Notes under the pieces: generated by a model
The model's input: only the letters and a program-made list of their open reading frames with translations
The model's database searches: none
Told to the model about the DNA's origin: nothing
Part shown: positions 23,503-25,338 of the stretch, piece after piece
How the letters are laid out: each line of letters opens with the position of its first letter
Numbering within the stretch: position 1 is the stretch's first letter
Assembly: GCF_056712565.1 (NCBI RefSeq)
Contig: NZ_CM160072.1
Length of the DNA: 64,000 nucleotides
Strand: one strand, 5' to 3'
Translations under genes and position numbers: made by a program

Positions 23503-25338
23503 TTACCTGCCAAAGCGCGTATAGCCAACATCATGGCTGACATCAAAACCGCTGGATCGCGTTTCCATAACCCGCATACCCGGAGGTGAATTCACAAAAG
23601 AGACCTTGATCTCACCATCAACTTTTGGCGCAGAAGCTTTGTTAATCATGAAGGGATTCGGGCCTGTGGCACCGGAGGCGTTGTTTGACTGAGCCGGATC
23701 CACCGCCTGATAAGGTGTGTATCCCCGTGCCGGTATTCCCGTCCCATAAGCATCATAAGCACCCGCGCCCCACTGCGCAGAGTTAATGGCATCGACCGTG
23801 TCACCGGAACTGTCGGTAAACCACTCAATAATTGGCTTCAGCTTGTCCCACATATCCTGAAACCACTTAACAACCGGTCCCCAGTTATTGATTACCATCC
23901 CCAGCGGCGACCAGGCAAAAACCTTCTTCAGAAGTTCCCGGCCAGCCTCAAAATAAGGACCAATGGTTTCCCAGAGCTTCTTGAAATAAGGTCCGACAAC
24001 ATCCCAGTTAGTGATAATTAATCCCGCAGCCAGGGCTATCGCCGTCGCAATCATGCCAATCGGCGTCATCGACATGATCCTGCTGACAATACTGATGGCA
24101 CCGCCAACGCCCATCAATCCCAGTTTCAGAATCGCAAGACCGGCAGCAAGCCCGACGACGCCGCGAATAACCCGGGGATTTTCATCCGCAAACTTCGTGA
24201 ATTTCTCCCCCAACTCCCCCAGCCATTGCGTGATATTTTTAGCGTCACCAGAAAATGCGCCGCCAATAGCCGCAAGGCCGTTAGTTGCGGTCCCTGTCAT
24301 TGCCTCCCACAGGTTGGACAGCGTACCAAGCTGTGCCTGAACACGTTTATTCAGACTGGCCTGTTTATTCATCTTCTGCTGGATCTGGTCGTAGCCATCC
24401 TTTCCTTTATCGATTAGTGCATTGACCACCTGAAGGGTTTCGGCATCATCACCAAATATTGCCTTAAGTACACCAGTTCGCTTAACGTCGGTCAGTTTTC
24501 GCAGCTTTGCCAGTTGCCTGAACATGTTATCAAGACCGCCAAAACTCCCTTTGCCGTCAGTAAAATCGAGCTGTACCCCGAGTTTCTGGCGGGCCATGAC
24601 TTTATTGACGTCCCTGATTTTCTTAACGCTTAATCCGGACTGGATAACTTTTCGCAGGGCGTTACCTGCCGACTCCCCGTTCATCCCCATCTGATCCATC
24701 ATGACGCTGATGGGGGCAAGGCTCTGTGCAGCCTGAAGACCGTCCTTGTTCACCATCTTCAGAACAGAGCTGGTTTTAGTGAAGAAGGACAACATGTTGG
24801 TATCGTCAACGCCCAGATAAAACGCCTTCTGGATAGTGTCGAACAGCCCCATCATGTCTTCTGACGCCGTTCCGGTAGCATCCTGCATCTTTGCGGCAAA
24901 CTCGGCAGCCGCTTCCGGTGTTTTTTTCAGTTGTACCGCAAGATAAGCTGTCGCTTTACCCACACCGCCAAGAATGTTTTCTGCCGGGATCCCCTGACGC
25001 ACCAGCATCTACATCATGTTCTGGAAATCAGCCGTTGTACCGGGTAGCTGGTTACCCAGACCAATAGCCAGTTTATTGATGTCCTGAAAGCGCTTTCCGA
25101 CCTCACCGTTCGCATCCATCATGGCAACTTTCAGCCCGGTGGCGGCGTTTTCCTGATCGGCATAAGATTTCAGGGAAAGCGTCAGACCCGCAGCCAGTCC
25201 GCCACCAAGCGCCAGCCCACCCTGTGACGCTTCTTCCGCCTGGCGTTTAAATCCCCGGATTTTCTTTTGCATTTTCGACAGCGCGGGAGAAAGCCTGTCG
25301 ACACCGGTGATCAACGCCTTAAGCTCAAATTCAGCCAT
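23503..25338 (-). pseudogene. Tail tape measure protein interrupted by an in-frame amber (TAG) codon at 25009-25011
   Basis: 109-aa ORF ...TADFQNMM, then TAG, then 501-aa ORF MLVRQGIPAENILGG... in the same frame; helical, Gly/Ala-rich membrane-like segments. Confidence 0.65.

Follow-up and report, generated by a model that had tools for sequence, protein, structure and literature searches.

Probable stepwise decay of the Mu-type tail module in an SfV/e14-like prophage at ssrA of an ST95-type Escherichia coli chromosome

Results

An SfV/e14-like prophage at ssrA

The stretch of DNA analysed here (the window; 64,000 nt of contig NZ_CM160072.1, assembly GCF_056712565.1) belongs to an ST95-type E. 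coli chromosome that is nearly the same as those of UTI89, ATCC 11775 and SF-468. It contains an element at the tmRNA gene ssrA that is flanked by direct repeats (Table 1). Since the left repeat copy overlaps the 3' end of ssrA, the repeats are att-like ends. An integrase gene is located near the far end of the element, and three small genes, one of them STAS-like, lie between this gene and the right repeat. The near-identity of the structural module to that of known phages, the integrase and the att-like repeats mark the element as a predicted temperate myovirus prophage of the SfV/e14 type, integrated at ssrA and equipped with an HK97-type head and a Mu-type contractile tail.

Table 1 Features of the ssrA prophage and its tail module, with coordinates in the window
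Feature	Position	Strand	Remarks
tmRNA (ssrA)	8562-8924		3' end overlapped by left repeat copy
Direct repeats, 197 bp	8883-9077 and 53341-53530		~90% identical; flank the element
Prophage/island at ssrA, approximate extent	9078..53340	.	Between the 197-bp direct repeats; gene content via UTI89 annotation
Pin/Gin-type serine DNA invertase stub	16036..16158	-	41 codons; catalytic domain incomplete, DNA-binding HTH missing
Invertible tail-fibre segment	16220..18158	.	20-nt inverted repeats; two alternative fibre C-termini and two fibre-assembly genes
Baseplate J / Mu gp47-type wedge gene, frameshifted	19021..20078	-	N-fragment of 279 aa (19239-20078) and C-terminal ORF of 79 aa (19021-19260)
1-nt deletion, one G of GGTGGCGC missing	19268..19270	-	By comparison with UTI89; placement ambiguous by 1-2 nt
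DNA_circ_N gene	22114-23484		Next after the tape-measure gene
Tail tape-measure gene, Mu gp42 / SfV orf14 type	23503..25338	-	611 codons and stop, one internal amber
Amber TAG replacing CAG (Gln110)	25009..25011	-	Coding-strand C>T at 25011; ATG directly 3'
Slippery heptamer T TTT TTC (25498-25492) and 53-codon open -1 frame	25331..25498	-	Ends with TGA 25333-25331 over the tape-measure start
Tail assembly chaperone gene, Phage_TAC_7, intact	25480..25749	-	Profile match; 'phage tail assembly protein' in relatives

The tail genes follow the order sheath, tube, chaperone, tape measure, DNA-circulation protein and homologues of Mu P/gp45/gp46/gp47/gp48, with Pfam matches to DNA_circ_N, Phage_Mu_Gp45, GP46, Baseplate_J and Phage_Mu_Gp48. 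Tail chaperone genes carry a programmed -1 shift, as known for lambda G/GT and P2 E/E+E'. The slippery heptamer and the open -1 frame in the chaperone gene of the window represent this conserved programmed frameshift, which is intact.

A base-by-base comparison with UTI89 over the 15.2 kb of head and tail genes yielded only two differences, the amber SNP in the tape-measure gene and the 1-nt deletion in the baseplate J gene. Outside these genes, the prophage differs from UTI89 in four amino acids, in two SNPs between genes and in one intergenic 1-nt homopolymer indel, and no other disruption was present. Head, lysis and regulatory functions are therefore as intact as in the relatives. Compared to SF-468, the window has four SNPs and no indel in 37 kb, and no indel across about 50 kb. 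The first-pass annotation had proposed that the tail genes of an otherwise intact prophage had decayed recently, and this part of the proposal is supported by the comparison with UTI89, while the loss of tail function itself is what we infer from the lesions. Two homopolymers differ from UTI89 in length: an intergenic one at 36024 (A8 vs A7), which is common to SF-468, and a non-coding one at 63965 upstream of stpA (C6 vs C7).

Lesions in the tape-measure and baseplate J genes

The tape-measure frame had been described as open except for one TAG, and translation confirmed this: it gave 612 codons with an internal stop after residue 109 (...FQNMM-stop-MLVRQ...) and the terminal stop. At the amber position the plus strand reads CTA, i.e. 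TAG on the coding strand. UTI89, ATCC 11775 and SF-468 have CAG for Gln110, from which a single C>T exchange gives the TAG of the window. Their orthologue, WP_000807182.1, is annotated as 'phage tail tape measure protein'. On this intact protein PF10145 (PhageMin_Tail) covers residues 88-296 (E=5e-27), and the stop falls 22 residues into the domain; on the 501-aa downstream fragment the match is limited to profile positions 25-201 (E=9e-23). PHROG tape-measure families match too. The position after the chaperone gene with its -1 frameshift and before the baseplate genes is that of the tape-measure family, but the single uninterrupted ruler frame of the family is broken by TAG at codon 110. As it stands in the window, the gene would be a pseudogene of this family and not a working member. 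Deamination at a Dcm site was considered as the source of the C>T exchange and was rejected, as the context is GATGCAGATG and not CCWGG.

The baseplate J gene is, again as described in the first-pass annotation, split into two overlapping frames, with a stop after 279 codons and the remainder in a second ORF. Relative to UTI89 the split is caused by the loss of one G, which changes CCGGTGGCGCAT to CCGGTGCGCAT. The N-fragment consists of 270 residues identical to the intact protein followed by nine out-of-frame residues, and the 79-aa ORF corresponds to the C-terminal part of the intact protein, beginning with residue 274. PF04865 covers residues 69-317 of the intact orthologue (E=2e-51) and is matched by the N-fragment at profile positions 2-206 of 255 (E=3e-44), so that the frameshift lies inside the domain. 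While the profile match and the neighbours GP46 and Phage_Mu_Gp48 place the gene in the baseplate J / Mu gp47 / P2 gpJ family, the 1-nt deletion after residue 270 leaves no complete PF04865 domain in one frame. The NCBI pipeline flags the gene as 'frameshifted' in SF-468 and in strain 10035004-3, the two inspected among 11 carriers. A second tail-gene lesion in 10035004-3, suggested by another product name for the DNA-circulation protein, was rejected because the protein accession is the same.

The invertase stub and the tail-fibre switch

Truncation of the invertase was likewise confirmed: its 41 residues correspond to Resolvase profile positions 2-47 of 145. The full-length homologue of phage vB_EcoM-689R6 has 184 aa with both a Resolvase and an HTH_7 domain, and the stub thus has neither the whole catalytic domain nor the C-terminal HTH_7 of the Pin/Gin/Cin/Hin invertases. 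In UTI89, ATCC 11775 and SF-468 it is flagged as 'incomplete; missing C-terminus', and it is present in all close ST95-type relatives inspected, also in those with intact tail genes. This distribution suggests that the truncation is older than the frameshift and the amber.

The fibre segment of the window is inverted relative to UTI89 and SF-468 and has the same orientation as in IHE3034, APEC O1 and AH21G053. Both orientations are found among near-identical prophages, frameshift carriers included. As this is the case despite the 41-codon stub, inversion would be carried out by an invertase encoded elsewhere in the genome. The truncated invertase had been taken as a further sign of lost tail function, but with a fibre segment that still occurs both ways the stub is uninformative in this respect.

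A GmrSD-type gene directly abuts the invertase stub, and insertion of the cargo block to which it belongs may have caused the truncation. This block at the left end of the prophage, beyond the stub (10840-15934), contains a DpnII/MboI-like gene, a LEM-3-like GIY-YIG gene, a DinI-like pseudogene and the GmrSD-type (DUF262) restriction gene, which are probably anti-phage or moron genes.

Spread of the lesions

The identical 71-nt frameshift allele was found in 11 of 779 complete genomes, with humans, a dog and chickens as hosts, and the exact 279-aa product is listed in 619 blocks of an extensive collection of assemblies. Wherever contigs were read (24/24), the 279-aa product adjoins an intact 611-aa tape measure. 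The carriers are nearly identical to one another. Because many independent assemblies carry the allele, a sequencing error is excluded for the frameshift, and the baseplate J allele is a genuine, inherited one that marks a sub-lineage.

For the amber the picture is different. None of the 901 complete E. coli genomes carrying the 71-nt stretch in question has it, an exact DNA scan of IMG/VR and JGI metagenomes gave no match to the amber allele, and neither the 109-aa nor the 501-aa split product is present in a collection of 15 billion proteins searched by full-protein look-up. Twelve contigs that seemed to encode these products were rejected, as they end within 2 nt of the amber site; their end bases (C or CA at left ends, G or AG at right ends) either agree with the wild type or carry no information. 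Among the data searched the amber is a singleton, unique to the window.

The lineage of the window is itself found in public data: six contigs of NCBI draft and SRA assemblies match the window at 100% identity for as much as 20.5 kb. The identical stretch includes SNPs 44830 and 45144, neither of which occurs in any complete E. coli genome. None of these lineage-mate assemblies yields the 109-aa or 501-aa product, and it is from the missing fragment products that the lineage mates, e.g. GCA_027274065.1 and GCA_023519835.1, were judged to be amber-free.

The two lineage SNPs, seen in several draft/SRA assemblies (SRR18143846 among them), are 314 bp apart in the immunity region (44830; 45136-45202; also 45941-45957). 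One of them results in YmfL V19A; the other falls on the middle base of a TGTACC-N5-GGTACA-type palindrome that lies between ymfT, which is cro-like, and the repressor-like ymfK. Three palindromes of this type are located between ymfT and ymfK, and the motif was found five times compared to 1.04 expected by chance. About 285 bp inside the left end of the prophage, near ssrA, lies an IS3-family insertion of IS2 size (1331 bp, 9362-10692), which carries HTH_Tnp_1 and rve ORFs, is flanked by a 5-bp target duplication (9357-9361 = 10693-10697) and is not present in UTI89 or SF-468. It is probably common to the lineage mates, as the draft contig of one of them seems to begin precisely where the insertion ends on the right.

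The three lesions had together been read as a recent loss of tail function. A recent decay of the tail module agrees with these distributions, but one shared recent event does not, since invertase stub, frameshift and amber differ in age.

Comparison with known relatives

The first-pass annotation had proposed a comparison with orthologous prophages, and this revealed intact tail genes in the UTI89-type relatives as well as in SfI, SfII, SfV and SfIV. Over the 11.8 kb of the tail module, nucleotide identity to SfV, SfI, SfII, SfIV and vB_EcoM-689R6 is 97-98% (97.9% for SfI, SfII and SfV), and these phages have the same gene order from the sheath through the Mu P/gp45/gp46/gp47/gp48 homologues. 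SfV orf14 also encodes 611 aa, from which the tape measure of the window differs at three residues and by the stop. Whereas the tape-measure and gp47-type genes are uninterrupted in the Sf phages and 689R6, the prophage of the window has the amber, the frameshift and the invertase stub. The intact orthologues belong to the viable, inducible and plaque-forming myoviruses SfI, SfII, SfV and SfIV (PMC3636060). SfI, which is described as close to SfV and e14, has been induced and forms plaques, and its contractile tail measures about 110 nm (PMC3636060).

In SfV the tail fibre genes are followed by the gtr serotype-conversion genes and not by an invertible segment as in the prophage of the window. 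The defective prophage e14 of E. coli K-12 shares ymfR, ymfQ, tfaE, ymfK, ymfT and ymfL with the prophage of the window; both have a Pin-type invertible tail-fibre segment and both appear as decaying SfV-like prophages. e14 sits at icd and has lost most structural genes by deletion. In contrast, the prophage described here is full length, sits at ssrA and would be disabled by point lesions only. To judge from shared Pfam families and annotation notes, its tail families match those of Mu, and both elements have a G-segment-like fibre switch, but its head, replication and regulatory genes are lambdoid/HK97-like and not Mu-like.

Discussion

We consider it likely that the Mu-type tail module of this SfV/e14-like ssrA prophage was pseudogenised stepwise, one point mutation at a time. 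The order of events that we infer is based on how widely each allele is shared. The invertase beside the fibre switch would have been truncated at first, where the GmrSD-type gene now abuts. Later, the baseplate wedge gene (J / Mu gp47) would have lost one nucleotide, and with it its reading frame, in a sub-lineage that went on to spread. A narrower lineage may subsequently have gained the two SNPs in the immunity region and probably the IS2-type insertion, until, in this genome only, a C>T transition would have changed the Gln110 codon of the tape-measure gene to amber.

In Mu, gp47 is a wedge subunit present in two copies per wedge, while gp42 is the trimeric tape measure, which fills the tube and seals and locks hub and spike (PMC11915804). 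Since gp47-type proteins are core wedge subunits, the frameshift alone should by homology block baseplate and tail assembly. The amber may then be a neutral second hit, because the module would no longer be under selection, and full-length tape measure would be made at most in traces, by near-cognate readthrough. Tail assembly would thus be abolished by the lesions. As head, lysis and regulatory genes match those of the relatives except for amino-acid replacements, induction is expected to kill and lyse the cells and to release tailless, non-infectious heads. The literature on prophage induction in ST95/UTI89 contained nothing specific to the ssrA prophage.

The first-pass annotation had named sequencing errors as an alternative. 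This is refuted for the frameshift by the many independent assemblies, and for the amber it is unlikely, though it deserves to be weighed. If the amber were a sequencing or assembly error, the strain would truly have CAG and the baseplate J frameshift would be the sole true lesion of the tail. The amber is strictly a singleton, nothing else sets the window apart from L019 over 11.9 kb, the lineage mates that carry the lineage SNPs of the window give no split tape-measure products, and no RefSeq complete E. coli genome matches the window with full identity, all of which would agree with an error. However, across about 50 kb the window is free of indels compared to SF-468, over 20.5 kb it is identical to the lineage mates, substitution errors are rare in a consensus of such quality, and any isolate is expected to have a private SNP. 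About one in 20-30 random coding substitutions creates a stop, by our estimate, and a nonsense SNP in a dead module is therefore unremarkable. Since the assembly looks accurate, a real private mutation is favoured: the amber would be a second hit of very recent date, with a base-call error as the less likely reading.

The alternative of suppressed or recoded sites, also raised in the first-pass annotation, found no support. It would require that the amber is read through by a suppressor tRNA or by programmed readthrough and that the break in baseplate J is bypassed by a -1 frameshift, so that complete tails are still made, which we regard as scarcely credible. The chaperone gene, 150 nt upstream, does have a genuine programmed -1 frameshift, so that recoding takes place in this module. 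A supE-type glutamine suppressor or a near-cognate tRNA-Gln would restore the wild-type residue at a TAG derived from CAG, and this amber could regain Gln in that way. But programmed sites are conserved, and TAG is found in 0/901 orthologues; the intact SfV, SfI and SfII read straight through both positions; and the frame break is not present in UTI89, ATCC 11775, SfV or 689R6 and occurs in just 11 of 779 genomes. The 64-kb window, to which the search for a suppressor tRNA applies, contains no tRNA gene, only tmRNA. Furthermore, the nine-codon overlap in baseplate J (CGC ATA CGG TGG ATT TTC ATA TCC GTG TGA) was searched for a slippery heptamer and has no X XXY YYZ in frame, and the deletion lies outside any homopolymer or repeat tract.

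A related possibility is that the split genes work as two-piece proteins by termination-reinitiation and give a leaky but functional tail. A restart codon abuts each premature stop (ATG right after TAG in the tape measure, stop and start overlapping within GTGA in baseplate J), both baseplate J fragments are called as separate genes in another assembly, and the frameshift allele persists in many isolates. Yet both breaks lie inside single Pfam domains and not between domains of the library used here, the ATG that follows the amber lacks a preceding Shine-Dalgarno sequence, and a tape measure runs through the tube as one continuous ruler (PMC11915804). Persistence of the frameshift is explained by clonal descent, because the carriers are nearly identical, and a functional two-piece tail is highly improbable. 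The same holds, at a very low probability, for the broader idea that the prophage is not tail-dead but keeps a low infectious yield, with Gln readthrough or the ATG restart supplying the tape measure and the GTGA restart a two-piece wedge. If this were true, the widespread frameshift allele would represent a tolerated, down-tuned state and not a dead one. That the allele is common fits hitch-hiking in a successful clone and would also fit a tolerated lesion.

Stepwise pseudogenisation, as favoured here, is the ordinary decay of a known prophage type without a new mechanism, and the genes were already recognised by the reference annotation. It opens no mechanistic question, and its significance is small beyond bookkeeping. 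Within these bounds the locus is a clear case, open to dating, of how a prophage of the ST95 clone is pseudogenised, with an old invertase truncation, a lineage-wide baseplate frameshift and a private amber. The lesion alleles could serve as lineage markers, and the prophage calls for caution with tools that score prophages as 'intact' by gene content alone.
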